Assembly (NCBI GenBank): GCA_016183565.1
Contig: JACPEJ010000003.1
Coordinates: 1-48,701 of the forward strand
Direction of reading: 5' to 3'
Length of the DNA stretch: 48,701 nucleotides
Source: Candidatus Blackburnbacteria bacterium
GTDB lineage: Bacteria > Patescibacteriota > Microgenomatia > UBA8517 > UBA10165
Positions within the stretch are counted from its first letter, which is position 1. Each line of letters begins with the position of its first letter. Both the position numbers and the translations under genes were made by a program. Under the pieces are notes generated by a model. That model was not told the DNA's origin. It did not search any database and was given only the letters and a program-made list of their open reading frames with translations. Positions 8,530 through 42,618 of this stretch are shown in pieces.

Positions 8530-8870
8530 CTCATTAAACCCAGTTTTGTTCTAAGGAGGATGCGATGGTTGCGGTTCGCTCTGGTAGAGTGGATGACCCT
8601 GTGTGCGACCTTCCAGTAGGCTCTCTCCTCAACCTCCGGGTGTACATCGGGGACAGCCTGATGGAGGCGGTAGTAGTTCTGGAGGAAATCCAGGGTCCGG
8701 GAGCAGCACGTGTCTGTGTGAAGAGTATCGAGCGGATGCCCTGCCACGATATCGCAAGGCCGGGCACAATCCTACAGGTGCCTCTTCACACACTCCACAT
8801 TCGCCCATAGCCTGCTAGCACCGGATCGGGTAAGATCAATTTTATCAATAAACACCCGATCTGGTGCCCC
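8530..8870. other. GC-rich orphan segment, possibly a remnant of foreign DNA
   Basis: Visibly GC-rich, with short overlapping ORFs in several frames (77-81 aa) and none recognisable. Ends with the inverted repeat caccggatcgggt...acccgatctggtg. Confidence 0.35.
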
Positions 8871-8925: not shown

Positions 8926-9125
8926 TAATCGAATAAAAGCGTTCCCAGATGTTACGTAGGGAAGAAGCGGAGTCACGATCCGTTAGCTGAGAGCCAAAAT
9001 GCTCTACGGAGGCTTAACCGTTAAACCAAGCAGCTGATGTCGCTTAGGCGGAGCCAGCACTGAGGGCTACGTTTATTAAAACTGAACGTAGAATAAGGAT
9101 GGGACCGCGGGGGGTCCTTTTTTTG
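8926..9125 (+). promoter_or_regulatory. T-box-like leader (probable tRNA-His sensing)
   Basis: AATAAGGATGGGACCGCGG at 9092-9110 matches the consensus AAnnnGGGUGGnACCGCG. The variable base of UGGN is G, the complement of a C73 discriminator. A 7-bp stem III-like hairpin sits at 9067-9091, and GGACC/GGTCC plus a T-run at 9102-9125. CAC triplets at 8974 and 9058 are specifier candidates. I could not fold Stem I confidently. Confidence 0.62.
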
Positions 9126-9204: not shown

Positions 9205-9873
9205 ATGGGCAATTCAGATAATAAGAGCGTTAAAATAGCAATCCAGAAAGATGGGAGATTGACTCAAGATACTGTCTCTCTTTTGCGGGCTGCTGGTTTA
9301 AGTTTTGAGAATTACAACAGAAAACTGTTTGTAAAATGTCGAAATTATCCGGCTGAGGTGCTTTATGTAAGAGATGATGATATCCCCTACTATGTTGCTT
9401 CAGGAATCGCTGATTTGGGTATAGTTGGCCAGAATGTTTTAAGAGAAAGTGGGTTTAGGGTTAATACTTTATTAGATTTGGGTTTTTGTAGATGTTCGCT
9501 TGTTATCGCGGTCCCCCAGAATTCTAATATTAGCAGAGCTTCTGACTTAAGGAATTCGACAATTGCTACATCTTATCCAAATAGCGCTAAAGAGTACTTC
9601 AAGGAAAATAAAATACCAATAAAAATAGTCAATATTAAGGGCGCGGTTGAAATTGCGCCAAGTTTGGGGTTCGCGCATGCAATTGTAGATATAGTAGCAA
9701 CAGGTAAAACTCTTGTCTTAAATAATTTGCGTATTCTACAAAAGATTTCCGATTCTCAAGCGCTTCTTATTACTCCCAACGAAGTTACTAGCAAAGAAAA
9801 AGCCAAGATCATTGACGATTTGAAAGTAAAGATTAGCGAAGTTTTAGGGGGAAAGGATTACGAATATTTATGA
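9205..9873 (+). CDS. hisG: ATP phosphoribosyltransferase, short form
   Basis: 222 aa. Motifs ADLGIVGQNVL and DIVATGKTL. There is no C-terminal regulatory domain (the long form is about 290-300 aa). Confidence 0.9.
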   Translation: MGNSDNKSVKIAIQKDGRLTQDTVSLLRAAGLSFENYNRKLFVKCRNYPAEVLYVRDDDIPYYVASGIADLGIVGQNVLRESGFRVNTLLDLGFCRCSLVIAVPQNSNISRASDLRNSTIATSYPNSAKEYFKENKIPIKIVNIKGAVEIAPSLGFAHAIVDIVATGKTLVLNNLRILQKISDSQALLITPNEVTSKEKAKIIDDLKVKISEVLGGKDYEYL

Positions 9874-10184
9874 TCAAGATTGATTATAAAAAAGGGGGTG
9901 GTTTAGTTCCTGCAATAATTCAGGACGCAAAAACAGGTGAGGTTCTAATGTTGGGATATATGAACAAAGAAGCTCTTAAGAAAACAAGAGAAACTGGATT
10001 TGTACACTTTTGGAGCAGGAAAAGAAAAGAACTTTGGCTAAAAGGAGAATCTTCAGGGAATAAACTAAAAGTGGAAGAAATTTTTATCGACTGCGATAAT
10101 GACACAGTACTTGTAAAAGTTAGTTGCATAGGAACCGGGGTTTGCCATACTGGGGCGAGAAATTGCTTTTTCCAAAAAATATGA
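9870..10184 (+). CDS. hisI: phosphoribosyl-AMP cyclohydrolase
   Basis: 104 aa. Motifs GLVPAIIQDAKTGEVLMLGYMN, WSRKRKELWLKGESSGN, DCDNDTVL and CHTG. Has a 4-nt overlap with hisG. Confidence 0.9.
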   Translation: MIKIDYKKGGGLVPAIIQDAKTGEVLMLGYMNKEALKKTRETGFVHFWSRKRKELWLKGESSGNKLKVEEIFIDCDNDTVLVKVSCIGTGVCHTGARNCFFQKI

Positions 10185-10474
10185 CAATAGATACACTTTA
10201 CAAAATTATTCAGACCCGCAGGAAAACCATGCCTGTTGGTTCGTATGTTGCTTTACTGTTTACCAAGGGTGAGGATAAGATTATCCAAAAAGTTGGGGAG
10301 GAAGCAACTGAGGTTGTGATTGCAGCAAAAAATAAAGATAAGAAGGAAATCATTTACGAAATGGCCGATCTTTGGTTTCATTCCCTTGTGCTTTTGGCCG
10401 CATTAGACATTAAACCAGAGGAGGTTTTAAAGGAGCTTGATTCGCGACATTCTGAAAAGAAAAAGGGGGGATAG
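10181..10474 (+). CDS. hisE: phosphoribosyl-ATP pyrophosphatase
   Basis: The ATG at 10181 overlaps the hisI stop (ATGA). Contains SYVALLFTKGEDKIIQKVGEEATEVVIAAKN and EMADLWFHSLVLL. Confidence 0.85.
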   Translation: MTIDTLYKIIQTRRKTMPVGSYVALLFTKGEDKIIQKVGEEATEVVIAAKNKDKKEIIYEMADLWFHSLVLLAALDIKPEEVLKELDSRHSEKKKGG

Positions 10475-10480: not shown

Positions 10481-11023
10481 CTAACCATATTTCTTCACAT
10501 ATCCCCTAGCCTCTTTGATTGCGATTTTGACTGCTTCTTCTGGAGTATCGCTACCCAAGACTTTTCTTCTTTGTCTTGCATCAAAATATTGGTCAGCAAG
10601 CTTATCGGCCCAACCGCCGGTTCCGCGAAGCGCAACCATCGGTATATCAGCCTGATACGCAACAACCAACTCATTTAAAGTCCCAGAGCCTCCAGAAATT
10701 GCGATAATAGCGTCGCAAGAAAGAGAGAGAACAAATTCTCGCCCTCCACCTCGTTCAAGTCCGGATGCGATAACTACATCCACACCTTTTTCGAAAATAT
10801 TTTTGTGCTTCCCGTAAGTTATTCCCACAGTCAGACCCTCTTTTCTTTTAGCGCCGCGGCAAGCTGCTGTAGATAAAGAGTTTAAATCTTTCTCCGCCCC
10901 AAAAACCATAATATTACCCGATTCGGCAATAAGTTCGCCAACACGTTCAGCTAACCCCTCAACTCTTTTACTGTATTTAAGGTCTGCACAAGATCCCATA
11001 ACACCAATTTGTAACTTTCTCAT
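10481..11023 (-). CDS. TIGR00725/LOG-like Rossmann-fold protein
   Basis: 180 aa. Has QIGVMGS and ISGGSGTLNEL (the GGxGTxxE signature). Confidence 0.75.
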   Translation of the reverse strand: MRKLQIGVMGSCADLKYSKRVEGLAERVGELIAESGNIMVFGAEKDLNSLSTAACRGAKRKEGLTVGITYGKHKNIFEKGVDVVIASGLERGGGREFVLSLSCDAIIAISGGSGTLNELVVAYQADIPMVALRGTGGWADKLADQYFDARQRRKVLGSDTPEEAVKIAIKEARGYVKKYG

Positions 11024-12383: not shown

Positions 12384-13661
12384 CTATCTTACCAACTTCC
12401 TTTTAAGAATATTTTTTCTTCGTAGAACTGGTAATACAAACCCTATTAGAGATCCTATTGTTCCTATGGTAACAGCTAGAAATTCAGTACTTGTTTCTAA
12501 TGTTGGCAAGAAGAAATATTTAGTTATCACAATAAGGGATGCAACCGATCCTCCTCCTACCAGAGAATAATATATTTGTTCTTTTTTGAATATGGCAAAA
12601 CCTTTTTCTTCTATAACATAGGCTAAAAAGGGAACCAAAACTCCGGCTACGTAAATCGCGTAAAAAGAAACTATCAAACTTATAATTGACCTGCCAAAGA
12701 CCGCTAAAATTCCAACGATTAAAATACCACAAACTGCAGAAAACAAGGTGCCCCTATACCGCACATCCAAAAAGGTAAAGTCCTTCAGGGTTTTATTAAC
12801 AATTCTTGCAACTGCCGTCCCAGAACCCATTGCTGCAAAAGCCAAACCTAGAACCAGGACACTACCAGCGCTATCACTAATCCTGTTACCCTCCGCCATT
12901 AAGATAAGTGGCAAGGCTTGCTTTGCATCCTGCAATTCGTTGCCTATCAAATCACGTCCTGAGTAAACTATTGTTACAGGCAGAAAAACTAGGAGAGAGA
13001 GAGCGATAAATGCCGCTATCTCTCCTTTTACAGATTTACCAACAGATCGGCCTTGTACTACAAACTGGTGAAAGTCCATTCCAAGAATGGTAATTAAAAT
13101 AGTTGTAACAGCAACCCCAAATACGTTACTGAACGATCCGGCTGAAAAAGGCGCAAAATTATCAACTGCTTTCCAATATTCCTCTATCCCAAAAGATCGT
13201 AAAACTATAAAGACCATAGCAACGGTGCTTATAAAAAGAGTGCAAAGAAAAACTTTTGACAACTTATTTATATTAAGAAGTGCCATAATATTAACAACCA
13301 CAGCTAACCCCCAAATACCAATCAAAGGTGGTAACCCTAGTGTGCTTAGAACAAATGCTCCTCCTAAAACTTGAGAGGCAACTATACCAATCATCCAAAT
13401 CCATGACAACAGACTGACAATATGCTCAACATTCCTACCGTATTTCTTGCCCAAGAGGATCCATATAGGTTTCTTTTCAAGCCAATACAGTCGGGTGACA
13501 AAAATTAAGCCTAACATTCCGGTAGCAGCAGAAAGTCCATACAACGCTCCACTTTTGGCAGAAATATAAGTTGCTTCCCCAGTGCCTAACAAAAACCCCA
13601 TCCCGTAATGGAGAGAAATAAGTCCTAAAGCTACTCCCAACCAATCAAGGTTGCGTTTCAT
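12384..13661 (-). CDS. multi-pass membrane transporter (solute:sodium symporter-like)
   Basis: 425 aa and almost entirely hydrophobic, with about 11-12 predicted TM segments. The family call is tentative. Confidence 0.55.
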   Translation of the reverse strand: MKRNLDWLGVALGLISLHYGMGFLLGTGEATYISAKSGALYGLSAATGMLGLIFVTRLYWLEKKPIWILLGKKYGRNVEHIVSLLSWIWMIGIVASQVLGGAFVLSTLGLPPLIGIWGLAVVVNIMALLNINKLSKVFLCTLFISTVAMVFIVLRSFGIEEYWKAVDNFAPFSAGSFSNVFGVAVTTILITILGMDFHQFVVQGRSVGKSVKGEIAAFIALSLLVFLPVTIVYSGRDLIGNELQDAKQALPLILMAEGNRISDSAGSVLVLGLAFAAMGSGTAVARIVNKTLKDFTFLDVRYRGTLFSAVCGILIVGILAVFGRSIISLIVSFYAIYVAGVLVPFLAYVIEEKGFAIFKKEQIYYSLVGGGSVASLIVITKYFFLPTLETSTEFLAVTIGTIGSLIGFVLPVLRRKNILKRKLVR

Positions 13662-13901
13662 GCTAATAAAAAACGCACCTTTCGGTGCGTATTACTCAGC
13701 GCAAATTGCGCGGTAGACCCTATGGTCCATTGTATGGTGCAAATGATGGTGATGTCGTTTTATGGTCATATTGGTTAGAAAAAATATACATAAATTATTG
13801 TCCGCTTGCAAGACCCAAAAAACGTTGTTGACATTAGTGTTATACTACGTTTGTACCCAGTTAGCACATTGACATACTAACCCGTATTGAAGGAGAGTCC
13901 T

Positions 13902-15044
13902 GTGCATGCTGTCAACGGTGTGGACGAAACGGAGGATGGTCACCACTGTAAACCTTACTACATAGTCGGCGGGACAGAGAGCTTCTTCGCCCAACAAATC
14001 CCGGTGGAAGTTGCGAGCGCACGAGTTGCCATCTGCAACTATATCGGTCACAAGATCTACCCAAATGACCCCGTGATCTGGGTAGGCTTTGTAGAAGTGC
14101 AGCAAATGCTTGCTCGTTGTGTCCAAGAGCTCAAGGTGCGACACGGCAATCTCCCCGTTGTCTCCTGCTCCAGGTTCTACTACCCGGGAGCAGATGCATT
14201 TGTTGAGTGCAACAGAGTGGTCGACTCCTCCGGAGAGAAGATCGGCGTTGGTCCACGACCATACGCTAAAAGTATCCCGGACCAAGTCGGCCTGATCCGA
14301 AGCCTGTATCCTAATACAAGCTTCATCGTCGTAGATGACATGCTTTTCCACGGCGACACCATCAACCAGCTACGAACAAGGAGGTTGCCTGTTCGGGCGA
14401 TGGCGGCTGCCTTTGCAACGGGTGAAGCAAAGGAGGCGCTTGAGCGAAGTGGTATAGAAGTCTGTGTGGGGCATCCACTCAGAACAAACCTCCGAGACAT
14501 GCTGCCTCTTCATGACTTCCTACCCCCATTACCCCTCTGTGGGAAGGTGGTGGGGCTAGACAACATGCCACTACCGGCAATGAAGAACGACCTCTCATCC
14601 AGCTTTCCGTACCTTCTGCCGTGGATTACGCCAGAGCAGCTTTGCTCATGGGCCAGCATACCCGAAAGCCACGCCGTTCCTTTCTCGATGCTATGCCTTA
14701 AGCAGTGTCTGGCCATATTCTCGGCTCTGCGCGATGCCAATATAGTACGTCTCTCGGACCTGGCACAGTTTCGCCCGCGAGCCAGCTGTCCCTATACTCC
14801 ACCTTCGGCAGAAATCAGGCGGGATACCGAGATCACAACAATGCTTGCCCAGGCACACTCACAGTTGTCAGGTATTGTGGATTTCGTTGTACACCCAACT
14901 GATCTCTGGCAGACAAGACAAGACAAGGAGAACGGAGATGCCGAGAAACTACAAGGGGACGCGGGACTGGCTGGCGGAGGACTCAAGCCTCAGAACCCGC
15001 GTTATCAACACAGTCCGGGAAGTGTTCGAACTTTTCGGGTTTGA
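13902..15044 (+). CDS. phosphoribosyltransferase-like protein (GC-rich island)
   Basis: GTG at 13902 lies 5 nt after the AAGGAGA RBS. Has a type I PRTase-like PRPP loop, SFIVVDDMLFHGDTI. The rest is unrecognised. The 3' 107 nt overlaps the next gene. Confidence 0.5.
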   Translation: MHAVNGVDETEDGHHCKPYYIVGGTESFFAQQIPVEVASARVAICNYIGHKIYPNDPVIWVGFVEVQQMLARCVQELKVRHGNLPVVSCSRFYYPGADAFVECNRVVDSSGEKIGVGPRPYAKSIPDQVGLIRSLYPNTSFIVVDDMLFHGDTINQLRTRRLPVRAMAAAFATGEAKEALERSGIEVCVGHPLRTNLRDMLPLHDFLPPLPLCGKVVGLDNMPLPAMKNDLSSSFPYLLPWITPEQLCSWASIPESHAVPFSMLCLKQCLAIFSALRDANIVRLSDLAQFRPRASCPYTPPSAEIRRDTEITTMLAQAHSQLSGIVDFVVHPTDLWQTRQDKENGDAEKLQGDAGLAGGGLKPQNPRYQHSPGSVRTFRV

Positions 15045-16302
15045 ACCTCTTGAAACACCGATCATCGAACTCAAGGAAACACTCTTTGGAAAAGGCGGAG
15101 ACGAGACCAACCGTCTTATCTACGCTTTCTCCAAGGGCCCAGATGATATCGGCCTGAGGTTCGACCACACAGTGCCCCTGGCGCGAGTGGTAGCTCAACA
15201 CCTCGGGGAGATCACCATCCCGTACAGGCGTTACGCAATTGGTCCTGTCTTCCGTGCAGACAAGCCTCAAAAAGGCCGCTACCGCCAGTTCTGGCAGTGC
15301 GACTTTGACATGGTAGGCACAAGAAGCCCCGTAGCAGACGCCGAGGTCATCGCACTAAGCTACACCACCCTAACACGGCTCGGTTTCACCGACCAGTTTG
15401 TTACCGATGTCTTTGATCGGCGGGCACTAAACGGCATGGCTCAAGTTATTGGGGCCCTAACAAAGGAGCAATCCTTTGCGGTGCTCCGCGGCTGGGACAA
15501 GCTGGCGAAGGTTCCACGCGAGAAAATCGGGGCGGAAGTTGAGGTAGCAGGAGTCGATAGGGAGGTGTTCAACCGCTATACAGACGAGCTCCTGGCTATC
15601 GCTAACTCCTCGGTTGCGAACGACAGGGTAATCGATTGTCTTGCCGAACTCTTCCCTAACAACCAGTTGGCTACAGAGGGATTCCAAGGCCTGCGCGAGA
15701 TCCTACGCTACCTTGCAGCCTACGGCGTTCCCGAGAAGCGAGTGCGCATCAACCCAACACTTGCCCGTGGTCTCGACTACTACACCGGTCCTATCTTTGA
15801 GACGGTCGTTGAGGAAGCCGGAGTAGGATCAGTAACAGGCGGCGGAAGGTTTGACAACCTGATCGAAGACCTCGGCGGACCAAGCATCCCTGCTACAGGC
15901 AGCTCCTTCGGGCTTGAGCGATTGGTTGAGGTACTAAGAATACTCAATATCGCTCAGCCAGAAAAAACGCCGGTGCAGGTTTTTGTCGCAAGCTTCGACA
16001 CGCGGAGCACTGAGTTGGTTGAACACGCCGTGACTATTGCAACAGAACTCCGCCACTCAGGAATCAGGACTGAACTTTTCATGGGAGAAGGAACCCTCGG
16101 AAAGCAGCTCCAGGTTGCCGACAGGCGGGGTGCACCATACGCCGTGTTCGCCGGCCCAGATGAGATGGCACAAAAGGCCGTCGTAATCAAGAACCTCAGA
16201 ACCGAACTCGTAAACGGCGACAAGGTCAAGATGAAGACGGCTAACCAGAGACTGGTCCCACGACGCGAGCTCGCAGCAGAGCTCAGAAGGCTCATCGCAT
16301 GA
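14938..16302 (+). CDS. hisS: histidine--tRNA ligase, GC-rich island copy
   Basis: ATG follows AAGGAGA. Motif 2 FRADKPQKGRYRQFWQCDFD, ARGLDYYTGPIFE, GGGRFD, motif 3 GSSFGLERL, and a C-terminal anticodon-binding domain. Confidence 0.85.
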   Translation: MPRNYKGTRDWLAEDSSLRTRVINTVREVFELFGFEPLETPIIELKETLFGKGGDETNRLIYAFSKGPDDIGLRFDHTVPLARVVAQHLGEITIPYRRYAIGPVFRADKPQKGRYRQFWQCDFDMVGTRSPVADAEVIALSYTTLTRLGFTDQFVTDVFDRRALNGMAQVIGALTKEQSFAVLRGWDKLAKVPREKIGAEVEVAGVDREVFNRYTDELLAIANSSVANDRVIDCLAELFPNNQLATEGFQGLREILRYLAAYGVPEKRVRINPTLARGLDYYTGPIFETVVEEAGVGSVTGGGRFDNLIEDLGGPSIPATGSSFGLERLVEVLRILNIAQPEKTPVQVFVASFDTRSTELVEHAVTIATELRHSGIRTELFMGEGTLGKQLQVADRRGAPYAVFAGPDEMAQKAVVIKNLRTELVNGDKVKMKTANQRLVPRRELAAELRRLIA

Positions 16303-16338
16303 CGCCAGTTTCTCAGTCAGAAGGTCTCAAGTTTAGCA

Positions 16339-16412
16339 GGGGCGCGTAGCTTAGCGGCCTAAAGCGCTGGTCTGTGAAACCAGTATCACGGGTCCGAATC
16401 CCGTCGCGCCCC
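16339..16412 (+). tRNA. tRNA-His (GUG) with encoded G-1 and C73
   Basis: Hand-folded cloverleaf. G-1 plus acceptor GGGCGCG/CGCGCCC, D stem GCTT/AAGC, anticodon stem CTGGT/ACCAG with loop CTGTGAA, T stem ACGGG/CCCGT, discriminator C. No CCA is encoded. Confidence 0.88.
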
Positions 16413-16515
16413 CCTCGCTAAGCTTTGCTGGCCTAAGACGCGTACCTTAAGACGAGGGCAAGACAGGACACCACAACTGCAGTGGGAATTCTGAACTTGC
16501 CTTAATGAACAACAA

Positions 16516-16574
16516 CCCCAGGTGGAATGTTTTGCACACCAAGTGCAGACACGAAACCTGGGGCTTTCTTTTTT
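16516..16574 (+). terminator. rho-independent terminator after tRNA-His
   Basis: CCCCAGG (16516-16522) pairs with CCTGGGG (16557-16563), with an internal sub-hairpin, followed by a T-rich run. Confidence 0.6.
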
Positions 16575-16583
16575 AGTACTTAA

Positions 16584-16619: not shown

Positions 16620-17930
16620 ATGGAGCAAAAAACATCACAAAATACTACTCCTAGTACTCCAAAGGGTTTCAGAGATTTTTTGCCCGAAAAGATGCGGGTA
16701 AGGCAATATGTTACAGAAGTCTTAATGGATGTTTTTGAATCTTTTGGTTTTGAGCCTTTACAAACTCCCACGCTGGAATATGCTTCGGTTTTGCAAGGCA
16801 AATACGGAGAAGAGGCGGATAAGCTTATGTATGTTTTCGAGGACCGTGGGGGCAGAAAGGTTGGTTTAAACTACGATCTTACTGTTCCTACCGCCAGAGT
16901 TCTTGCACAATACCAGGGCAAGATTCCCCTTCCGTTCAAGCGTTATCAAATCCAATCTTCCTATAGAGCAGAAAATCCACAAAAAGGTCGATATCGCCAG
17001 TTTGTGCAATGTGATGTTGATACATTCGGTGTATCCTCTCCCCTGGCTGATGCTGAAATAATAGCCATAATTTATACAGCTCTAAAAAGATTAGGGTTTC
17101 TAGAATTTAAGATACGCATAAACTCTCGCCAAGTGCTTTTTGGGATATTGCAAGATGCTGGTATTGGGGATAAGAAGTTACAGCTGTCGGTTTTGCAGTC
17201 AATAGATAAATTGGGCAAAAAAGCTGAGGCGGAAGTTGAGGAAGAATTAACTTCAAAAGGGCTTTCCTCAGATGGTATTAAGTCGTTATTTGAAGCAATT
17301 AAAAAGGCAACACCAGATGAGAATCTTGCTCAAATGTTTTCCTACTTGGACCAGTTTGGAGTAAGCCGAGATTGTTGGGAGTTTAGTCCTTTTATGGCAC
17401 GAGGGCTTGATTATTACACAGGTCCAATATTCGAAACCGTCTTGGAAAAACCCAAAATTGGGAGCATTACCGGCGGAGGTAGGTATGATGATCTGGTTTC
17501 GCAATTGGGAGGGCCAAATGTTCCTGCAACTGGAACTACAATAGGATTTGAGCGTATATGCGATGTAATAGAAGAATTGGGACTCTTGCGAGATGAGTTA
17601 GAAGGTAACAGAGGCATACTTGTAACAGTTTTTTCTCTAGAGTTAGTAGATCAGTCTATAAAAGTTTTGAATCTTCTTCAGGAAAGCGGTAATAACGTCA
17701 CCCTTTATCCGGACCCAAATGTCCCTTTGGAAAAACAATTATCGTACGCTAACAAAAAGGGTATTCCATTCGTAGTAATAATAGGGCCGGATGAAAAAGA
17801 AAAAGGAACTGCTCTAATAAAAGATATGGAGAGTGGAGAGCAGGAAACTGTCAAGCAAGAAAATATCGGGAAAGCAATTACAAAACAAGCCATTGAATTT
17901 GGCACAAAGGCAGTGGTGGTATTAGGGTAA
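16620..17930 (+). CDS. hisS: histidine--tRNA ligase, AT-rich native copy
   Basis: Motifs GLNYDLTVPTARVLA, motif 2 YRAENPQKGRYRQFVQCDVD, ARGLDYYTGPIFE, GGGRYD, GTTIGFERI, and an anticodon-binding domain. Confidence 0.9.
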   Translation: MEQKTSQNTTPSTPKGFRDFLPEKMRVRQYVTEVLMDVFESFGFEPLQTPTLEYASVLQGKYGEEADKLMYVFEDRGGRKVGLNYDLTVPTARVLAQYQGKIPLPFKRYQIQSSYRAENPQKGRYRQFVQCDVDTFGVSSPLADAEIIAIIYTALKRLGFLEFKIRINSRQVLFGILQDAGIGDKKLQLSVLQSIDKLGKKAEAEVEEELTSKGLSSDGIKSLFEAIKKATPDENLAQMFSYLDQFGVSRDCWEFSPFMARGLDYYTGPIFETVLEKPKIGSITGGGRYDDLVSQLGGPNVPATGTTIGFERICDVIEELGLLRDELEGNRGILVTVFSLELVDQSIKVLNLLQESGNNVTLYPDPNVPLEKQLSYANKKGIPFVVIIGPDEKEKGTALIKDMESGEQETVKQENIGKAITKQAIEFGTKAVVVLG

Positions 17931-34448: not shown

Positions 34449-34785
34449 ATTAGTACAATGTTATAACCCGCAAAGCAAGTTGTCAAGCAGGCCCAGAAGT
34501 TGTTACTCATACTTTAAGGCTTGGATTGGGTCGAGTTTGGAGGCTCGGATTGCGGGAGCAACTCCGAAGACTATGTCAACAAACATTTTACCAACAAAAG
34601 CGGAACACCATTAAATCAGCAATTTCCCAACAACTTGTATATGAACTGTCAATTTTGATACTTGAAGTGCGAAACTCGTGTATAGCGGGAAACACTGCAG
34701 GTACAGCGAAAAACTTGGTTATTTGGTTTTGGAGGGTTGAATGAACTTGAGGTAGTCTAGGACAGTGGTTGTGAACTCTAGTCCC

Positions 34786-34930
34786 CCGGCCTCGAGCTAT
34801 TTTCGCATAGAGTTGCCCCTATACTATCGTTACCGCTTGTACGTTTCACTTCCTTGTTCGGAATGGCCCGCTTCGCCGAATCGCTTCAGCGAGGCGAGAT
34901 AAGGGTGGTTCCGTACAGCTCAGGAGACCG
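34786..34930 (-). rRNA. rrf: 5S rRNA with a ~31-nt GC hairpin insertion
   Basis: RNA-sense features: helix I GGUCUCCUGAGC/GCUCGAGGCC, CCGAAC..GAAGUGAAAC, and GAUAGUAUAGGGG..CUAUGCGAAAAUAG. The locus is about 145 nt because of extra sequence at about 34867-34897. Confidence 0.75.
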
Positions 34931-34943
34931 AAAGGCTAGAATG

Positions 34944-34970
34944 CACAAATTTGCTTGTCGCTTTGCTCAT
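34944..34970 (-). promoter_or_regulatory. 3' strand of the pre-23S processing stem
   Basis: 27 nt, complementary at 26 of 27 positions to 40903-40929. The two strands lie 42-43 nt outside the 23S ends, the classic RNase III stem geometry. Confidence 0.7.
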
Positions 34971-35069
34971 CTGCTCCGTTAAATCTTTGATTTAACGGGA
35001 AAGGGTTTAAGTATTGTCCAATCGACCAATTAGTACAAGTAGGCTTAAACCCTTACGGGTCTTACACCA

Positions 35070-35199
35070 CTTGCCTATCCCCCGACATCATGCTCGACTT
35101 TCGTCTCGCACCGTCGGGGTTCCCTCTCCACCATCGACAAGCCAACCAGAACTTCCGCAAATTAATGCGGGAGTCCCGATGGTTTGCCGAAGGCGAATG
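35070..35199 (-). other. unclassified ~130-nt three-hairpin insertion in the 23S 3' domain
   Basis: Extra sequence between the equivalents of ...GAAAGAUGAUCAGG and GAUAGG. Hairpins: CCCCGAC..GUCGGGG, CCGCAAAUUAAUGCGG, CCCGAUAUC..GAUGGUUUG. Boundaries are approximate. Confidence 0.4.
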
Positions 35200-35233
35200 A
35201 TATCGGGAAACGTTGTATTCTCCAACGGGTCTC

Positions 35234-35347
35234 ACTCGCGCACAGCGCGAGTCAGCCATAAAGCTATTAGGCTATAAAGCTATGATGTCTTTTCTTCATA
35301 GCTCTATTGCTTCATTGCGACATAGCTAACTTGTGCTATGCACAAGT
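35234..35347 (-). repeat. hairpin-bounded rRNA mini-insertion, copy E1 (core type A)
   Basis: actcgcgc-aca-gcgcgagt at 35234-35252 and acttgtgc-tat-gcacaagt at 35329-35347. The core is rich in ataaagctatt / cttcatagct. Confidence 0.8.
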
Positions 35348-35369
35348 GTTTTGGATTCCTCATCTTGGG

Positions 35370-35404
<35 letters not shown>

Positions 35405-35640
35405 TCATGGGAACGTAGCTACCCAGCGGTGCCATTGACATGACAACTGGTAAACCAGGGGTTCCCCCATGCTGGTCCTCTCGTACTGAGCACAGCTCCC
35501 CTCAAGAATCCTTCGCTTACACCGGATAGAGTCCGAACTGATTCACATCGTTCTGAACCCAGCTCGCGTAATGTTTTAATGGGCGAACAGACCAACCCTT
35601 GGGAGGTACTACCCCCCCAGGATACATTGAGCCGACATCG

Positions 35641-36452
35641 CATTTAAACCTATCCATTTTCATGGTAGCCTGACTATACCTTCACCCACTGAAACAAAAT
35701 GGGTGTCAACGTATTATGAAATGAGGTTTCTCATTTCATCTGTCCCGATGTAACTCGGGACAAGTCGATACGGGGTCAAGTTAATTAGACGATAGATGAT
35801 AGAAAATAGAAAATAGATCTTTGATGATAGAAAATAGACAATGGATTAATAAGTTTTCCAGTTATTCCTTAGGTTGGTAATTTTTCCACCTAAAGCAATA
35901 TACCTTGTAATTAACCCGTTGCAAACATCCTTATTTATAAAACCTAAATCTCTTGCCATGCTTAAATGAACTTCCATTTCATTGCAAGAGCCTAAGGACT
36001 TATCAAGGTGGACCTTAAATTCTTTTTCAAATCTCCTTTTAGCCCACCCTTCTGCAATATTTGCTGGAGGTGATTTAGAGCATCTTCTCAGTTGAGAACC
36101 TAAATCATTTTTCTCATACATTGGAAGTTTTTGACAAAGTTTGTTGACAATAATTGCCAATTCATAACTTTCTTTGTACACTCCCAAATCTTTGAAGCTC
36201 GTTATCATATCTCCATTATCTATCTTCTATCTTCAAATTACTATCTTCTACCCTCTATCATCTACCGTCCACACTAACCGACTTCCCACGGTATTACCCT
36301 GTGTCATTATTTAACTTTGAACCAAATCCAAAGTCAAGTCTGTTTTTGACCTTAAGGGCTCCACCGTTATGAGTTGATATTTCGTTCAAACCACTGGGTA
36401 GTGTTTGAACAACAGCACTCTGACGTTGCCGTCGGAGGACCCCGATATGTTG
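35641..36452 (-). mobile_element. group I intron in 23S after the E. coli U2500 equivalent
   Basis: The exon reads CUACCU|...|CGAUGUCGGCUC. The 5' exon ends in U and the intron ends in G. Core motifs GAAGGUAUAGUC (35672-35683), GACCCCGUAUCGAC (35764-35777) and GGGUAAUACCGUGGGAAGUCGG (36278-36300). Confidence 0.8.
35846..36208 (-). CDS. four-helix-bundle protein (23S rRNA intervening-sequence protein family, TIGR02436-like)
   Basis: 120 aa. FKDLGVYKESYELA, QLRRCSKSPPANIAEGW and GSCNEMEVHLSMA match the family pattern. It lies wholly inside the intron. Confidence 0.88.
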   Translation of the reverse strand: MITSFKDLGVYKESYELAIIVNKLCQKLPMYEKNDLGSQLRRCSKSPPANIAEGWAKRRFEKEFKVHLDKSLGSCNEMEVHLSMARDLGFINKDVCNGLITRYIALGGKITNLRNNWKTY

Positions 36453-36874
36453 AGGTAGCGAACCGCGCCGTCGATATGGACTCTCGGGCGCGACTACTCT
36501 GTTATCCCCGGGGTAGCTTTTATCCGTTAAGCTCGTAGTCTCCCACGAAACTATCGAGGATCACTAGGACCTGCTTTCGCACCTGCTCGGCCCGTCGGCC
36601 TCACAGTCAAGCCGGCTTATGCCCTTACACTTACAGCACGATTTCCATCCGTGCTAAGCCGACCTTTGTACTCCTGCGTTACCTTTTAGCAGGATACCGC
36701 CCCAGTAAAACTGTCCGTTAAACATTGTCCCCGAACCCGTTTGCAGGGCCCTTAGGTAAGATTTAAATTCACCAAAGAGAGGTGTTTCACTGGCCCCGCC
36801 CAAACTTTCTTGCGAAAGAATGTTGGCGGGTCCCTCCTACGCTAAACAATTGGTAAATCCAAATCAATGTCAAA

Positions 36875-36908
<34 letters not shown>

Positions 36909-37006
36909 GTGTAAGTAGGCCGCATCTTCACGGCCACTGCAATTTCACCGAGTAGAGGTTCGAGACAGCTGCCAACTCGTTACGCCTTTCGTGCAGGTCG
37001 GAACTT

Positions 37007-37210
37007 CATGTTTGTTCTCGCGCTTTCGCGGAGCATGGACTCTCTCTTCCCCCGACGTTACGTCGGGAGGTCAGCGTTTGGTCTCTACGGGGTCAACCCT
37101 TCGATTAACTCAGGGCGACTTCCCTCGGGATTACCGTGTCCACCTGTTGGCGGATTTAGGCTTCCCCGATATAGCTAACATGGGCAATTCTAGCTGCACA
37201 CTAGAGCTTT
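37007..37210 (-). mobile_element. compact ORF-less group I intron after the U1951 equivalent
   Basis: 204 nt. The 5' exon ends ...GUCGGGU and the intron ends ...AACAUG. Core motifs GGUAAUCCCGAGGGAAGUCG (37116-37137), GACCCCGUAGAGAC (37081-37094) and GAAGAGAGAGUCC (37038-37049). Confidence 0.7.
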
Positions 37211-37218
37211 ACCCGACA
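37211..37218 (-). other. 8-nt 23S micro-exon UGUCGGGU (helix 71 5' strand)
   Basis: Joining UUCCU + UGUCGGGU + AAGUUCCGACC reproduces the universal UUCCUUGUCGGGUAAGUUCCGACC. No other GUCGG partner for the CCGAC strand exists nearby. Confidence 0.65.
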
Positions 37219-38259
37219 CAATCTGTTGCTTTTTCTGACCCCACTTAAAGTAGGGCGTCTTGATATTTCTATCAAGATCTGCATGTCGCCATGCAGTTCA
37301 GACTATATTATCTCCGAATTTACTTCAGAGCTTAGCGTGTAGTCGTTGAGGCTCCGAATAAGTTTCTCCAATCTCTCCCTCATTTTGGACAATCGGGAAG
37401 GATACTGATTCATAAAAATCTTTGCAACCCTAAGAACTTCTTTCTTACTACCAACTTCCCAATGGAATAAACCATCATCGCTGCGCTTATGAATATAACC
37501 GCAACCGAGAAAGCTTTTCGCCAACTCGATAATCTTGCGATCTTTCATTGCTACAGCAAAGAACGGTTGTTGGTATAAACCAGATTTCTTTAGGCCACAT
37601 GAACCTTCGGCATCCATGATCCCAGATAAGAAAAAGCCAGTTGCATCGCTATTGTGGCGATTTACCGAGCCTTCTATCTCAAAACCATAGAGTTTAAGAT
37701 TCTTAAGACCCTTACGACATTTTTCTATTACTTCAATCTTGTCTTGAACTTTTGAGTACTTACCGATTGACGGTAAGACTTTTCCTAAAAATTCAAGCTT
37801 CTTGATTGCTATATCTCCCGCAAGAACCGGATAATCTCGAAAAAAGTTGAGAACAAATTCAACTTTTCTTCTACCTCTAAACTTGAGGTTATATCCTCCC
37901 TTAATTGGGCTGATGATTCCTTGTTCTGAAGCAATTACCCGATTAACTTCTTCCAGAAGAAATCGGTCTGCGTTGGAAACAGTTAAATCAGGAGTAAAGT
38001 AAAAACCTTTTCCTTTTTTATGAGTAGCCCGAATTATCGAACAACTCAATTCTCCAACACAAAAACCTGTGTAATAGAACTTACTAAACTCATTCGTTGC
38101 CTGCTGATTATCTGCACTTGAAGCATTGTCAGTTGAAGATGTTGGCATTAATTCCAGTATTAACCGAAATTAACCCAAAGTCAACAACTAGCTCAAGATA
38201 CTCAGACGTTCCAGCATATAGCCAAGTTTTCCCAACATATGGTTGTTGGGTCCCCTTAG
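37219..38259 (-). mobile_element. ORF-bearing intron after the U1943 equivalent (probable group I, class unassigned)
   Basis: The 5' exon ends in U, the intron ends in G (..CAGAUUG), and a GGGGA guide can pair with UUCCU. It lacks the core motifs shared by the other four introns. About 190 nt is non-coding. Confidence 0.6.
37303..38148 (-). CDS. double-motif LAGLIDADG homing endonuclease
   Basis: 281 aa. Motifs YTGFCVGELSCS and FFLSGIMDAEGSCG. Confidence 0.85.
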   Translation of the reverse strand: MPTSSTDNASSADNQQATNEFSKFYYTGFCVGELSCSIIRATHKKGKGFYFTPDLTVSNADRFLLEEVNRVIASEQGIISPIKGGYNLKFRGRRKVEFVLNFFRDYPVLAGDIAIKKLEFLGKVLPSIGKYSKVQDKIEVIEKCRKGLKNLKLYGFEIEGSVNRHNSDATGFFLSGIMDAEGSCGLKKSGLYQQPFFAVAMKDRKIIELAKSFLGCGYIHKRSDDGLFHWEVGSKKEVLRVAKIFMNQYPSRLSKMRERLEKLIRSLNDYTLSSEVNSEII

Positions 38260-38464
38260 AGGAACTTCGCTACCGTAGAACAGTTATAGTTACTGCTGCC
38301 GTTTACCGGAGCTTCATTTCTCAGCAACCGAGGCTTGCGCCCCGCCACCGATCCACTTGACTTACCGGCACTGGGCAGGCGTCAGCCCCTATACTTTGCT
38401 TTTCAGCTTTGCAGGGACCTGTGTTTTTGATAAACAGTCGGTTGGCAATCTTTAGCTGCGGCCC

Positions 38465-38580
38465 ACTCGCGCACAGCGCAAAAATTTCTAATTTGAAATT
38501 TAAAATTTGAAATGAATTTTTATTGAGATTTCATTAAAAATTGAAAATTAAAAATTAAAAATTCTTGTGCTATGCACAAG
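38465..38580 (-). repeat. hairpin-bounded rRNA mini-insertion, copy E6 (AT-rich core type B)
   Basis: The low-coordinate hairpin is degenerate (actcgcgcacagcgc). The other is cttgtgc-tat-gcacaag at 38564-38580. The core aatttctaatttgaaatttaaaatttgaaatg... is nearly identical to copy E5. Confidence 0.75.
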
Positions 38581-39134
38581 CGGGCAGGACATCTTGAAAA
38601 ACTTACGTCCAGCTTTTTTGCCGAATTCCTTAAACCTCTTTCTCTCGCTCGCCTTAGTCTTCTCGACCAGCCCACCTGTGTCGGATATCGGTACGGCTTG
38701 CCTTGTGTCTTGCTGCGAACCTTTTCTTGTAAGTTGAAAGCGCTTAGATTGCATCCCTTGCGGAACGCTTTGTATCACTGCTTGGTTAAACATCCTAACG
38801 GATTTTCCAATCAGAACTACTTAACAGCTTACACCCACCATGTTCATGGGTGGGCCTAAGACTTCCAACTCAGTCAGTCCCCAGCTATAACGACTCAAAA
38901 CAAGTAGACGAATATTAACGTCTTGTCCATCCCCTACTCCCCCGATTAAATCGGGGGGCTTAGGTTAGGCACCGACTAACCCGTCGACGACGAACGTAGC
39001 GACGGAAACCTTGGGCATACGGCGGTCCGAATTTTCATCGGACTGTACGTTACTCATACCGGCATTCTCACTACTGTACGCTCCACCCTACCTTCCAGTA
39101 GAGCTTCAATGCATACAGCACGCTCCCCTACCAT

Positions 39135-39286
39135 ACTCGCCCTCCGGGCGAGTCAGCTATAAAGCTATTGAGCTATTAGGCTATAAAAGATTTTCTTCGA
39201 AAATCTCTTCAACTTTCGTATAAAGTAAAAAGCTTCATAGCTTCATTGCGTCATTGCTTCATCGCTAACTTGTCCGAAGGACAAGT
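39135..39286 (-). repeat. hairpin-bounded rRNA mini-insertion, copy E2 (core type A, helix 45 equivalent)
   Basis: actcgccc-tcc-gggcgagt at 39135-39153 and acttgtcc-gaa-ggacaagt at 39268-39286. Confidence 0.8.
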
Positions 39287-39341
39287 ATCTCTAGTTTCGG
39301 CGCTTGGCTTAATCCTCGATAAATCTTCGGCGCTACCATCC

Positions 39342-39463
39342 ACTCGCCCTCCGGGCGAGTCAGCTATAAAGCTATTGAGCTATTAGGCTATAAAAGATTT
39401 TCTTCGAAAATCTCTTCAACTTTCGTATAAAGTAAAAAGCTTCATAGCTTCATTGCGTCATTG
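39342..39463 (-). repeat. truncated copy E3, 122 nt identical to E2
   Basis: 39342-39463 equals 39135-39256 base for base by my reading. It lacks the last 30 nt, including the acttgtcc hairpin. Confidence 0.8.
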
Positions 39464-39497
<34 letters not shown>

Positions 39498-40014
39498 GTG
39501 TCTTTGGACGGCAACTTCCTTTGCAACTTAGCCAAGATCTTAGAGGCCTTAACTGAGAGTCTGGGTTGTTTCCCTTTCGTCACACCAGCTTAGCCCGGCA
39601 TGACTGTTTCCCTTAATTTTCCACAGTTGTATTCGGAGTTTGGTTGAGATATCTTAAGTTACCTCTTGATACCCCATCCAGTGCTCTACCCCAACTGAGT
39701 TTTTTTAAAAGACGGTCCCTATAGACCTTTCGGGGAGAACCAGCTATCTCCAGGTTCGTTTGGCATTTTACCGCTAACCACAAGTCATCCGAGCACATTG
39801 CAACGTACACCGGTTCGGGCCTCCTCGCGGCATTTCTGCCGGATTCACCCTGCTCATAGTTAGATCACCTGGTTTCGGGTCTGCCCCCACGCGCATTTCC
39901 GCCGATTGGCGGATCGGGCTATTCACCCTCGCTTTCACTATGCCTTCACCACGGAGTGGCTTAGACTGCGCATGACGACAACTCGCCGGTTCATTCTTCA
40001 ATAGGCACGGTATC

Positions 40015-40129
40015 ACTCGCCCTCCGGGCGAGTCAGCTATAAAGCTATTAAGCTGTTAGGCTATGAAGTAAAAGGCTTCATAGCTCCATTGCATCATTGC
40101 TTCATCGCTAACTTGTCCGAAGGACAAGC
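40015..40129 (-). repeat. hairpin-bounded rRNA mini-insertion, copy E4 (core type A, helix 25 equivalent)
   Basis: actcgccc-tcc-gggcgagt at 40015-40033 and acttgtcc-gaa-ggacaagc at 40111-40129. Confidence 0.8.
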
Positions 40130-40413
40130 TTTACCGGTTTGTTCGCAAACAGTTTCAGGTTCTATTTCACTGGGCGTCCCGCCCATCTTTTCACCTTTCC
40201 CTCGCGGTACTAGTTCACTATCGGTCACAAGTTGTATTTAGCCTTACCCAGTGGTCTGGGTAGATTCCCACAAGATTTCTCGTGTCCCGTGGTACTCAGG
40301 AACATCCTAGAGTCCCGTTAGATTTTGTATACAAGACTTTCACTTTCTTTGGTCGACAATTCCATGTCATTCTACTATCTAACGAAATCCCACATTGGAG
40401 TCCTACAACCCCC

Positions 40414-40529
40414 ACTCGCGCGCTGCGCGAGAATTTCTAATTTGAAATTTAAAATTTGAAATGAATTTTTATTGAGATTTCATTAAAAATTGAAAATTAA
40501 AAATTTAAAATTCTTGTGCAACGCACAAG
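40414..40529 (-). repeat. hairpin-bounded rRNA mini-insertion, copy E5 (AT-rich core type B)
   Basis: actcgcgc-gct-gcgcgag at 40414-40431 and cttgtgc-aac-gcacaag at 40513-40529. Confidence 0.8.
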
Positions 40530-40573
40530 CAGGTTTGGGCTTTTCCGCTTTCGCTCGCCGCTACTAACGGAAT

Positions 40574-40612
40574 ACCTGCCCGCAATGCTACGCATAGCGT
40601 TGCAGGCGGGCT
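40574..40612 (-). repeat. ~39-nt GC hairpin insertion in 23S domain I
   Basis: Extra gcccgcaatgc..gcgttgcaggcgggc between the equivalents of ...ACCGAAGU and AUUCCGUUAGUAGCGGCGAGCG. The CCCGCC..GGCGGG theme resembles the palindrome at 44424-44461. Confidence 0.55.
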
Positions 40613-40902
40613 ACTTCGGTATCTTTTCCTCTGGGTACTTAGATGTTTCAGTTCCCCAGGTGCCCCCTGCTGCGGCTATATTCCGATAAATCGAAAATTT
40701 TACCACAGAGTCTCCGACGATGAAGTCGGAGGGGTTTCCCCATTCGGAAACCATCGGATAAATGGATGTTGGCTCCTACCCGATGAGTATCGCCGCCAAC
40801 TGCGTCCTTCTTCGGCAACTTGCACCAAGGCATTCACTGTTTGCGTTCTTTAGGACAATACAAAAACCCTTGCCACGTTCATGTAAACTGAACGTGGCCT
40901 AA

Positions 40903-40929
40903 ATGAGCAAAGCGACAAGAAAATTTGTG
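40903..40929 (-). promoter_or_regulatory. 5' strand of the pre-23S processing stem
   Basis: Complementary to 34944-34970 at 26 of 27 positions. Confidence 0.7.
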
Positions 40930-41069
40930 TTCAAATCTCTTATCACTTTGTTTAAAATTTCAATTGTTAAAGTGCCCTTCGACTTCGCCAAGTCAGACTT
41001 GGCTTCGCTCAGGGTAAACTGACCCTGCAAAGTATGGCTTGCACTGAGCAAGCGAAGCGTGCCGAAGTG

Positions 41070-41142
41070 TGGACCCGGGCGGGATCGAACCGCCTACCTC
41101 CTCATTGCAAATGAGGTGTTCAACCAACTAAACTTCGGGCCC
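41070..41142 (-). tRNA. tRNA-Ala (UGC)
   Basis: Minus-strand cloverleaf. Acceptor GGGCCCG/CGGGTCC with G3-U70, anticodon loop TTTGCAA, T arm GGCGG-TTCGATC-CCGCC. No CCA is encoded. Confidence 0.9.
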
Positions 41143-41318
41143 GTAAAAACTGAAAAAGCTGGCAAGAGCCAGCTTTCTTATGAGAAGTTGTACAAATCAA
41201 CGGACTATACTTTGAGGCAGTATGTCCCTGACGGGATGTTTGAAAAGAGTCGGGAACTTCTCATTAATTATGCTGCTTCTTGCGCTTTAGTGTATTTTAA
41301 TCTCAATTGAGCTTGCTG

Positions 41319-42023: not shown

Positions 42024-42027
42024 AAAG

Positions 42028-42360
42028 TTATGGTTCGTCCACATATTCGAGAAAAAGTTTTCTCTCGAAACCACCTCGTTCTATTTTCTTTTTCTCTTTT
42101 TGTTTTTCAACCTCAACAATCGTCGTGTTGTTGTTTAGTGCGATTGACTCCAACAACTGAAGAACATCTGATAACTCATTCAAAATTTCCTCGTCAGTTT
42201 TTGCTTCCAGTAATTCTTTTGCTTCCTCAACCAGCTTTTCTTTTAAGGCAATTTTGAATTGATCGTCATTCAATTCTGAAACTTTTGGGACAGCATTATT
42301 CTTTTTGATAATCTCTGGAATTCTATCCCTTATTAGCTTGTTATAAGTTTTCCGGTTCAT
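42028..42360 (-). CDS. MazG-like nucleoside triphosphate pyrophosphohydrolase
   Basis: 110 aa. YNKLIRDRIPEII and the KLVEEAKELLEA/ELSDVLQLLE helices are typical of small MazG-type enzymes. Confidence 0.7.
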   Translation of the reverse strand: MNRKTYNKLIRDRIPEIIKKNNAVPKVSELNDDQFKIALKEKLVEEAKELLEAKTDEEILNELSDVLQLLESIALNNNTTIVEVEKQKEKKKIERGGFERKLFLEYVDEP

Positions 42361-42540
42361 GTTATTTCAAAACTTGGTAATGAAGTTGAATTTCGTTATC
42401 AGTATCAGTTATTTTCTTTTGACCCAAAAGTTTCAACGCTTCTTTTGGCGAGTGAGCAATTAGGTGATTTGGTCCCAAAGTTTGATATTGGTGGACTCTC
42501 TACGAACAAATTCGGACTGATTTCAAAATACGAACGTCGT

Positions 42541-42610
42541 AGCTCCGGCCCCGCTTCGCGTGGCCTCCGCTTTTTTGCGCGCGCGATTTTTTGCTCGGCT
42601 GAGGCCGAGC
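42541..42610. repeat. GC-rich element
   Basis: A GC spike between AT-rich genes containing the hairpin ttgctcggc-tga-ggccgagcaa. The 85-aa ORF across it is judged spurious. Confidence 0.45.
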
Positions 42611-42618
42611 AATAAACA

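Follow-up and report, generated by a model that had tools for sequence, protein, structure and literature searches.

The locus described here raises the question why a GC-rich segment, with a complete histidyl-tRNA synthetase (HisRS) gene and a tRNA-His gene of its own, stands directly upstream of a second HisRS gene in an otherwise AT-rich bacterial sequence. The segment occupies positions 13887-16574 of a 48,701-nucleotide stretch from Candidatus Blackburnbacteria bacterium (contig JACPEJ010000003.1), a member of the candidate phyla radiation (CPR), and this stretch is called the window in the following. The data for the source genome consist of this 48.7-kb window, those for the relatives of individual loci or contigs, which carry L numbers. 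In the initial annotation, made from the window alone, the segment was taken for a horizontally acquired island inserted next to the native synthetase gene. We consider it instead probable that the segment is an ancient, vertically inherited operon, in which one HisRS of an isozyme pair is combined with a partner protein of phosphoribosyltransferase (PRTase) fold. The features in question are the following.

13902-15044, forward strand: UNK, of predicted PRTase fold and member of a CPR protein family that has not been characterised; starts with GTG behind the ribosome-binding site GGAGAG, or alternatively with TTG at 13887.

14938-16302, forward strand: HisRS-A, a complete, GC-rich class II synthetase of the CPR-specific clade A; ATG start.

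16339-16414, forward strand: tRNA-His(GUG), found with ARAGORN; G-1 at 16339, body at 16340-16414, C73, CCA not encoded.

16516-16575, forward strand: intrinsic terminator; hairpin ccccaggt...acctgggg (16516-16563), followed by a U-run.

16620-17930, forward strand: HisRS-B, a complete synthetase of clade B; 40.7% GC, matching the genome composition.

The genes are thus ordered UNK, HisRS-A, tRNA-His(GUG), terminator, and HisRS-B starts 45 nt further on. The GC content of the segment is 54.8%, while all non-overlapping 2688-nt windows of the 48.7 kb, the rRNA operon included, have a mean of 41.6% (sd 2.4, maximum 47.5), which corresponds to z=5.5. At both edges (about 13.85-13.9 kb and about 16.55 kb) the shift takes place within roughly 100 nt. 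The excess is held by the third codon positions, at which the GC content (GC3) reaches 0.59/0.62 in the island genes compared with 0.21-0.44 (about 0.33) in the other genes of the window, and C as well as G are raised at fourfold and twofold degenerate sites. In these descriptive points the initial annotation was correct: it had noted the compositional jump between about 13.9 and 16.6 kb, a content of a PRTase-like gene, a complete HisRS, a tRNA-His with G-1 and C73 and a terminator, and the second, AT-rich HisRS 45 nt downstream.

The age of the arrangement is indicated by the related genomes. The closest homologue of HisRS-A (64% identity) is found in two Blackburnbacteria metagenome-assembled genomes (MAGs; L004 and L005), in which the order of membrane protein, unknown protein, HisRS, tRNA-His, second HisRS, L31 and RF1 is unchanged and the first two operon genes have 52-55% GC compared with 39-47% in most flanking genes. 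The pattern, position and GC excess included, recurs in a third lineage, represented by the 228-kb contig L010. The identity of the window proteins to those of the relatives is 64/58% for HisRS-A, 52/46% for UNK, 69/60% for RF1 and 60/58% for L31; HisRS-B, with only 49/38% in the same comparisons, is the less stable copy. Since the operon is syntenic in the relatives and its divergence matches that of the RF1 and L31 flanks, it appears to have been inherited vertically. The description of an island inserted upstream of a native HisRS is not supported for a segment which is syntenic, GC-rich and as diverged as its flanks in the relatives. Directly downstream of HisRS-B an IS200/IS605-type Y1 transposase is encoded in L005 (11504-12076); the otherwise collinear L004 has a 116-aa open reading frame (ORF) at that place.

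Both synthetases are predicted from their sequences to be complete enzymes which histidylate tRNA-His. HisRS-A and HisRS-B reach 363.4 and 391.9 bits with TIGR00442 (hisS, cut-off 286.75 bits), whereas both remain with 178.9 and 168.8 bits below the cut-off of TIGR00443 (HisZ, 271.65 bits). PF13393 and the anticodon-binding domain PF03129 match both copies, and motif 2, the RGLDYYTG box and motif 3 (GGGR[FY]D) are present in both and invariant across the clade A alignment. That either protein is a HisZ was therefore ruled out by the curated cut-offs together with the retention of PF03129 and the catalytic motifs. The start of HisRS-A agrees with the homologue consensus M..RNYxGTRDW.

The two copies are 39% identical to each other, close to the 40% which had been estimated by eye for diverged paralogues, and fall into separate clades. 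Trees were calculated by neighbour-joining from p-distance-derived distances for 111-117 sequences with 60-100 bootstrap replicates. Clade A has 100% support and comprises 45 metagenomic or CPR sequences, the named ones being Blackburnbacteria, Collierbacteria and Microgenomates. All three HisRS-B copies group in the other clade together with Shapirobacteria, Microgenomates and other Patescibacteria (support 50-58%). The phylogeny, which had been proposed as a check, thus does not let the two copies branch together, and HisRS-A and HisRS-B would be deep paralogues or xenologues from two clades which are both populated by CPR bacteria. A Chloroflexota-like donor of HisRS-A was also considered, as a scan of GTDB returned mostly Chloroflexota at 40-46% identity, but it was discarded: clade A is CPR-only with 100% support, and its outer joins are unsupported. 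L100 (8001-11770, Collierbacteria), L112 and L119 (Vogelbacteria) also have a pair of HisRS genes from different clades that lie no more than a few kb apart, and the raised GC3 of the UNK-like gene is shared by only one gene of the pair (0.71 vs 0.25 in L112, 0.65 vs 0.51 in L119).

None of the 436 residues of HisRS-B is a histidine, and 27 of the 33 sampled clade-B sequences are free of histidine as well. A synthetase without histidine could therefore still be made when His-tRNA is scarce. The second HisRS of the Collierbacteria locus L100 (10460-11770) is likewise free of histidine.

Whether the two enzymes use separate tRNAs can be judged from the identity elements. The tRNA-His of the operon scores 65.4 bits with Rfam RF00005 (threshold 29), and G-1, C73 and the GUG anticodon are encoded in the window, L004 and L010 genes alike. 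The second tRNA-His type of the relatives (GUGG... acceptor) has the identical G-1/C73/GUG set. HisRS-A and HisRS-B both retain the glycine of the G-1-pocket loop and the PQKGR motif 2 loop; the structural basis of the recognition by this pocket is taken from PMC4357726. An orthogonal HisRS/tRNA pair, which had been suggested as one purpose of the segment, is unlikely in this genome because G-1:C73 is canonical and both enzymes keep the matching loop residues.

Other lineages with a linked tRNA-His differ in this respect from the window. Genome-encoded G-1 is a near-universal feature of tRNA-His. It is present together with C73 in all nine tRNA-His genes linked to HisRS of clade B, of clade U1 or of non-CPR origin. 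The tRNA-His loci examined beside HisRS of clade A or of U2, the second UNK-linked HisRS clade, include L008, L012, L015, L017, L019, L100 and L103-L119; in 15 of these 20 genes position -1 is T, C or A, so that G-1 is not encoded, and six of the 15 have A73. Where G-1 is not encoded, the HisRS pocket loop is in both clades usually devoid of glycine or contains an insertion, and motif 2 mostly reads Q-AG-R.

The T-loop of the window tRNA (16392-16398) is UCCGAAU, with a C at position 55, and thus departs from U54-U55-C56. U55, the site of pseudouridine, is nearly universal in the T-loop of tRNAs. The same loop occurs in the tRNA-His of L004 (9422-9497) and in the third tRNA-His of L010 (12862-12935); as the latter is of the other tRNA-His type, the exchange was dropped as a marker of the island tRNA. 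L010 contains three tandem tRNA-His genes between HisRS-A and HisRS-B (12399-12935), two of them near-identical and of the island type and one of the GUGG-acceptor type just upstream of HisRS-B. The trailer of the window tRNA folds as a terminator (z=-3.2), and beyond the tRNA it is not conserved in the relatives. A search of Rfam at E<=1 for structured RNAs or a T-box in the island or the trailer returned the tRNA alone.

The first gene of the operon encodes UNK, a protein of 380 aa if translated from the GTG at 13902, which carries the PRPP-loop sequence SFIVVDDMLFHGDTI (PRPP, phosphoribosyl pyrophosphate). Its conserved part stops near 14877 (about residue 325), while the last approximately 55 residues do not align with the homologues and are disordered according to the prediction. 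Because the homologues stop at about residue 325, the overlap of 107 nt with HisRS-A is explained by a displaced stop codon; the start of HisRS-A inside the preceding ORF, to which the initial annotation had drawn attention, is real but trivial, as it concerns a non-conserved read-through tail.

UNK has no match in Pfam or NCBIfam and stays below the threshold of PF00156, to which distant family members give sub-threshold matches; the best hit of a profile search against the PDB had only E~0.3. An AlphaFold2 model based on an alignment of 16 homologues reached pLDDT 85 and pTM 0.80, and for the N-terminal ~190 aa the top matches of Foldseek were all APRT, UPRT or OPRT (E 2e-4 to 1e-3, TM to target 0.42-0.53). 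According to the model the N-terminal domain has the core fold of type I PRTases, which agrees with the PRTase-like character first assigned to this gene. The PRPP loop consists of a hydrophobic run, two acidic residues and x4-G-x-T (FIVVDDMLFHGDT); the acidic pair and G-x-T are kept, and D145, D146 and G151 are invariant among the 16 aligned members. From this model UNK probably binds PRPP or a ligand of the ribose-5-phosphate type. The C-terminal ~130 residues contain the invariant motifs HD..LP..LCGKV.G, PY..P, WASIP and R.S.P. When this domain was submitted alone (AlphaFold2 pLDDT 75), Foldseek gave no match better than E=4 and the PDB profile search gave nothing, and a fold assignment was dropped as neither a structural nor a sequence relative was found.

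Close homologues of UNK are scarce: an index of 5.8 billion proteins contains 16 clusters, and 185,579 species genomes yielded a single locus. By profile search 619 UNK-like representatives were collected, in which the two-domain layout is retained. The GTDB loci of this wider family are all from CPR bacteria (Saccharibacteria, Paceibacterota, Moranii-, Buchanan-, Falkow-, Vogel- and Giovannonibacteria). A distant member, P0391 (475 aa), has a GNAT acetyltransferase domain fused to its N-terminus. This fusion and the recurrent GNAT-like, AstE/AspA and M20 deacylase neighbours described below hint, at the level of sequence, at an acyl-amino-acid substrate for UNK.

The linkage of UNK to HisRS extends far beyond the window. 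All close UNK homologues for which the contig covers the HisRS side adjoin a clade-A HisRS, and a tRNA-His follows immediately downstream of this HisRS wherever the sequence extends that far; L016 is uninformative for the linkage as its contig stops 353 nt from UNK. For the wider UNK-like family a HisRS gene is located within 7 kb in 27 of 31 species-representative GTDB loci, ten of which have a tRNA-His directly 3'. A further constituent of the locus serves as a reference for its neighbourhood.

10481-11023, reverse strand: SLOG LDcluster4 protein (PF18306, E=5.5e-29), the most conserved member of the neighbourhood.

This protein is 71-76% identical in the relatives and 56-74% across phyla, and most of the 31 GTDB loci encode it next to their UNK-like and HisRS genes. 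The pairwise distances of UNK and the linked HisRS are correlated (Mantel r=0.75, p<=0.0005). The partial correlation of UNK and HisRS given SLOG LDcluster4 is 0.69, while that of UNK and SLOG given HisRS is 0.06. UNK thus tracks the synthetase rather than the neighbourhood, and it co-evolves with HisRS.

Other recurrent neighbours are an AstE/AspA-type deacylase, Cof-type HAD phosphatases, PfkB, an M20 peptidase, a GNAT-like protein and histidine ammonia-lyase, sometimes urocanase, or hisG/hisI/hisE. The window has the version of the locus with a short-form hisG, hisI, hisE, two SLOG proteins and a membrane protein. Here the first three activities of histidine biosynthesis are encoded at 9205-10474 by the short-form hisG (222 aa), hisI (PRA-CH) and hisE (PRA-PH). 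A short-form HisG normally depends on HisZ. No HisZ-type protein is encoded in the window, and of the HisRS family only the two full-length synthetases lie nearby. A T-box-like leader (8945-9121) precedes hisG (9205-9873) and matches RF00230 with 23.5 bits (E=0.0065), far under the gathering score; it ends with the terminator-like GGACCGCGGGGGGUCC and a U-run, and a C73 discriminator would be complementary to its UGGG bulge. A second tRNA-His gene takes the place of this leader upstream of hisG in L004.

The GC excess is shared by UNK and HisRS in other genomes as well. In 24 further CPR genomes the GC3 of the UNK-like gene lies above that of the co-located cluster genes by 0.14 on average (21 of 24 loci) and that of the linked HisRS by 0.13 (20 of 22), and the two values are nearly equal in a given genome, e.g. 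0.74/0.74, 0.70/0.70 or 0.31/0.33. Among the window, L004 and L010 synonymous sites are saturated, yet the GC3 of the pair is 0.56-0.68 compared with 0.3-0.5 in the flanks. Because the excess outlasts synonymous saturation, the composition seems to be actively maintained and is not a fading donor signature. Translational selection for high expression was rejected as an explanation, since GC3 is only 0.32-0.39 in the window's genes for ribosomal proteins and SSB and G3 and C3 are both up in the pair; the amino acid composition was rejected as the sole cause, since third positions and fourfold sites show the strongest shift. As judged from these sequences, the UNK-HisRS pair has retained its high GC over long times throughout the CPR. 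Its most likely cause, which we put forward as a hypothesis, is repeated exchange or gene conversion of the pair among CPR lineages. Such an exchange would fit the patchy spread of the four HisRS clades over CPR phyla and the HisRS types found side by side.

Small GC-rich orphan ORFs were noticed near the histidine locus in the window (8565-8810, 58% GC), L004 (9714-9992, 55%) and L010 (14355-14927, 61%). The other loci examined contain no homologue of any of them, and for that reason they were not accepted as belonging to the module; they could represent stray pieces of foreign DNA or, in sequence of high GC, ORFs that are spurious.

The anatomy and conservation of the operon, its synteny, the clade membership of the enzymes, the co-evolution of UNK and HisRS, their shared GC3 excess and the canonical identity set can be read directly from the data, and from them we derive the following picture. 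UNK, HisRS-A, tRNA-His and the terminator would form one old operon, passed on vertically in a Blackburnbacteria-like lineage of the Microgenomates group. Its three genes would be co-transcribed and provide a self-contained histidine-charging unit, in which the clade-A HisRS charges the tRNA encoded next to it. UNK would be an accessory protein, which by binding PRPP or a ribose-5-phosphate ligand might connect HisRS-A with the enzymes for histidine and nucleotide salvage encoded nearby. HisRS-B, the histidine-free isozyme of the other clade, could still be produced under histidine limitation, and the two enzymes most likely share the G-1:C73 tRNA-His as condition-specific isozymes with a division of labour. 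The GC excess of the UNK-HisRS pair would be kept by repeated exchange or biased gene conversion, which is the weakest step of this picture.

Several observations weigh against parts of it. The trees were made by neighbour-joining and their deep nodes are weak, as seen from the 50-58% support of clade B. Histidine-poor HisRS are widespread, the median of non-CPR sequences being four histidines, and because they are so common a starvation-proof role of HisRS-B is suggestive only. UNK lies under the Pfam threshold for PRTases and its C-terminal domain is without a known relative, so that its ligand and its role are guesses. A GC excess at saturated synonymous sites needs an active force, for which gene conversion or transfer is a hypothesis only, and this idea sits poorly with the flank-congruent divergence in the three closest genomes.

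A comparison with known systems helps to place the locus. HisZ and the short HisG resemble it in that the genes of a HisRS-family protein and of a transferase dependent on PRPP are coupled at a locus related to histidine. HisZ has neither an anticodon-binding domain nor catalytic activity, and HisG has the type IV PRTase fold. HisRS-A is in contrast a complete enzyme, and UNK combines a predicted type I fold with a novel C-terminal domain, so that the analogy is a functional one only. The type I PRTases APRT, UPRT, OPRT and PyrR share with UNK the fold of its N-terminal domain and the loop with an acidic pair and G-x-T (VVDDMLFHGDT); they differ from it by an identity of only 13-21%, its sub-threshold match to PF00156 and its extra C-terminal domain of ~130 residues.

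Closest in its layout is the tryptophan system of Microgenomates-group CPR bacteria, in which tRNA-Trp(A73), ORF1 and TrpRS-A are followed by a bacterial TrpRS and the proteins are free of Trp (Mukai et al. 2017, Life 7:8; PMC5370408). There, too, a CPR bacterium has an extra synthetase with its own tRNA and a co-evolving unknown ORF beside a canonical synthetase, and the cognate amino acid is depleted in the proteins as it is at the HisRS locus. The A73 of that tRNA is matched by the A73 of linked tRNA-His in sister lineages, but not in the window. Further differences are the amino acid itself, the class II nature of HisRS and the accessory protein, which is here of predicted PRTase fold and not aaRS-like (aaRS, aminoacyl-tRNA synthetase). 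Moreover, no GC-rich composition was reported for the tryptophan system, clade A is not demonstrably archaeal, and the window tRNA-His is a canonical bacterial one.

G-1-independent pairs of HisRS and tRNA-His are known from Caulobacter and other alpha-proteobacteria (PMC3064791, PMC4357726), the Caulobacter enzyme having a DD pair in place of the pocket glycines (PMC4357726). The sister members of clade A and U2 are similar to these in the absence of an encoded G-1, in some cases with A73, in the loss of the pocket glycine and in the changed motif 2 loop, whereas the pair of the window keeps G-1:C73 and the canonical loop. Duplicated synthetases which serve resistance or stress responses, such as the mupirocin-resistant IleRS2, LysU and the ThrRS duplicates, were reviewed in 2022 (PMC9437257), and the table of that review gives no function for a full-length HisRS duplicate. 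The window resembles these cases in that the genome has a second complete synthetase for the same amino acid, but one copy is in an operon with a tRNA and an accessory protein, in an arrangement which is lineage-wide.

Among the alternatives, an assembly chimera, in which a foreign GC-rich fragment was joined into an AT-rich contig, would account for an abrupt change of GC in a metagenome-derived sequence. Three Logan assemblies from different runs (SRR12113430, SRR12113384 and SRR12113385; L001-L003) span 6.2-7.0 kb over both borders at 99.9% identity with 6 mismatches, and two NCBI MAGs as well as further assemblies of related species share the architecture. As three separate assemblies cross both borders, the chimera is effectively excluded and its probability negligible. 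Recent acquisition, by which the synthetase/tRNA cassette of a GC-rich donor was placed beside the resident hisS, has more in its favour: the sharp compositional borders with their GC and GC3 excess, the tRNA gene at the 3' edge of the segment, the GC-rich orphan ORFs near the locus in the window, L004 and L010, and the transposase beside HisRS-B in L005. The syntenic operon of L004/L005 and L010, with a divergence equal to that of the housekeeping flanks, and the recurrence of the UNK-HisRS GC excess over CPR phyla are opposed to it. Neither border repeats at the island edges nor an integrase or transposase among the island ORFs were detected, and UNK has no relatives in phage records, plasmid records or IMG/VR viral contigs; on these grounds a mobile element was rejected. 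As clade A and the UNK family have only CPR or metagenome members, no GC-rich donor outside the CPR is visible. A recent transfer, the origin first proposed for the segment, is thus not borne out at a locus which is occupied alike in three relatives and shows no mobility features, and we hold it to be quite improbable.

The remaining alternatives accept an old operon and assign it another task. HisRS-A, tRNA-His and UNK might form a dedicated, non-translational unit, which feeds His-tRNA or His-AMP to PRPP chemistry or matures or marks tRNA-His, while HisRS-B serves translation. This would give a meaning to the strict linkage and co-evolution of UNK and HisRS, to the sister-lineage tRNA-His without encoded G-1 and often with A73, whose HisRS loops co-vary, and to the GNAT-UNK-like fusion and the acyl-amino-acid enzymes conserved nearby; ORF1/TrpRS-A and the enzymes which use aminoacyl-tRNAs are precedents. 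At L008, L012, L015 and L017, however, HisRS-A is the only HisRS within the flanks and therefore presumably translational, the window tRNA is apart from C55 a normal elongator-type tRNA-His, and the operon lacks an aminoacyl-tRNA-dependent transferase. We regard such a unit as unlikely. In a more specific form UNK would be an obligate HisRS partner of CPR bacteria and act in a PRPP-dependent manner on tRNA-His, His-tRNA-His or enzyme-bound His-AMP, for instance by adding a 5'-mark which replaces G-1; this is improbable, but if true, the operon would be a previously unknown system of tRNA identity or maturation and the lineage of the window a secondary revertant to an encoded G-1. A complex in the manner of HisZ and HisG (PMC9437257), with HisRS-A as histidine-sensing partner of the UNK PRTase and a PRPP step under the control of histidine or tRNA charging, would suit the adjacent or overlapping, co-evolving genes and the histidine genes at the locus (short hisG, hisI and hisE in the window; histidine ammonia-lyase, urocanase and M20 in relatives). 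It is distinctly unlikely in view of the type I fold predicted for UNK, which is unlike that of HisG, and of the catalytic motifs and anticodon domain of HisRS-A, which scores 179 bits against the HisZ cut-off of 272. Finally, one HisRS could be insensitive to a natural product directed against the enzyme and possibly made by neighbouring enzymes, since aaRS duplicates commonly confer resistance (PMC9437257) and at least two HisRS types stand side by side in several CPR genomes. The operon contains no non-ribosomal peptide synthetase, polyketide synthase or ATP-grasp ligase, its neighbourhood resembles a salvage or catabolic one, and the pairing with a tRNA gene would be left unexplained, which makes self-resistance very improbable.

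Elsewhere in the window the rRNA operon (34784-48701, reverse strand) is unusually spaced. Its 23S gene measures 4519 nt compared with 2925 nt of the model, which implies large insertions, and the spacers amount to about 2.5 kb from 16S to tRNA-Ile, about 3.1 kb from tRNA-Ile to tRNA-Ala and about 1.4 kb from 23S to 5S.

Full-text literature searches returned no description of a HisRS/PRTase-like module, and both the CPR-wide PRTase-like partner of HisRS and the persistent, gene-specific GC excess appear to be unreported. An ancient operon, as preferred here, teaches some caution, since a GC island is not automatically a recent transfer; the signature of the two genes is also a natural case for studying how bacteria keep the base composition of particular genes distinct. 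Natural changes of the code and of tRNA identity, as well as synthetic orthogonal pairs, have their raw material in duplicated synthetases which possess tRNAs of their own. In the CPR, HisRS travels with a co-evolving protein of predicted PRTase fold and often with a tRNA-His without encoded G-1, and the locus makes both the tRNA-His identity of these bacteria and the role of the UNK partner testable.

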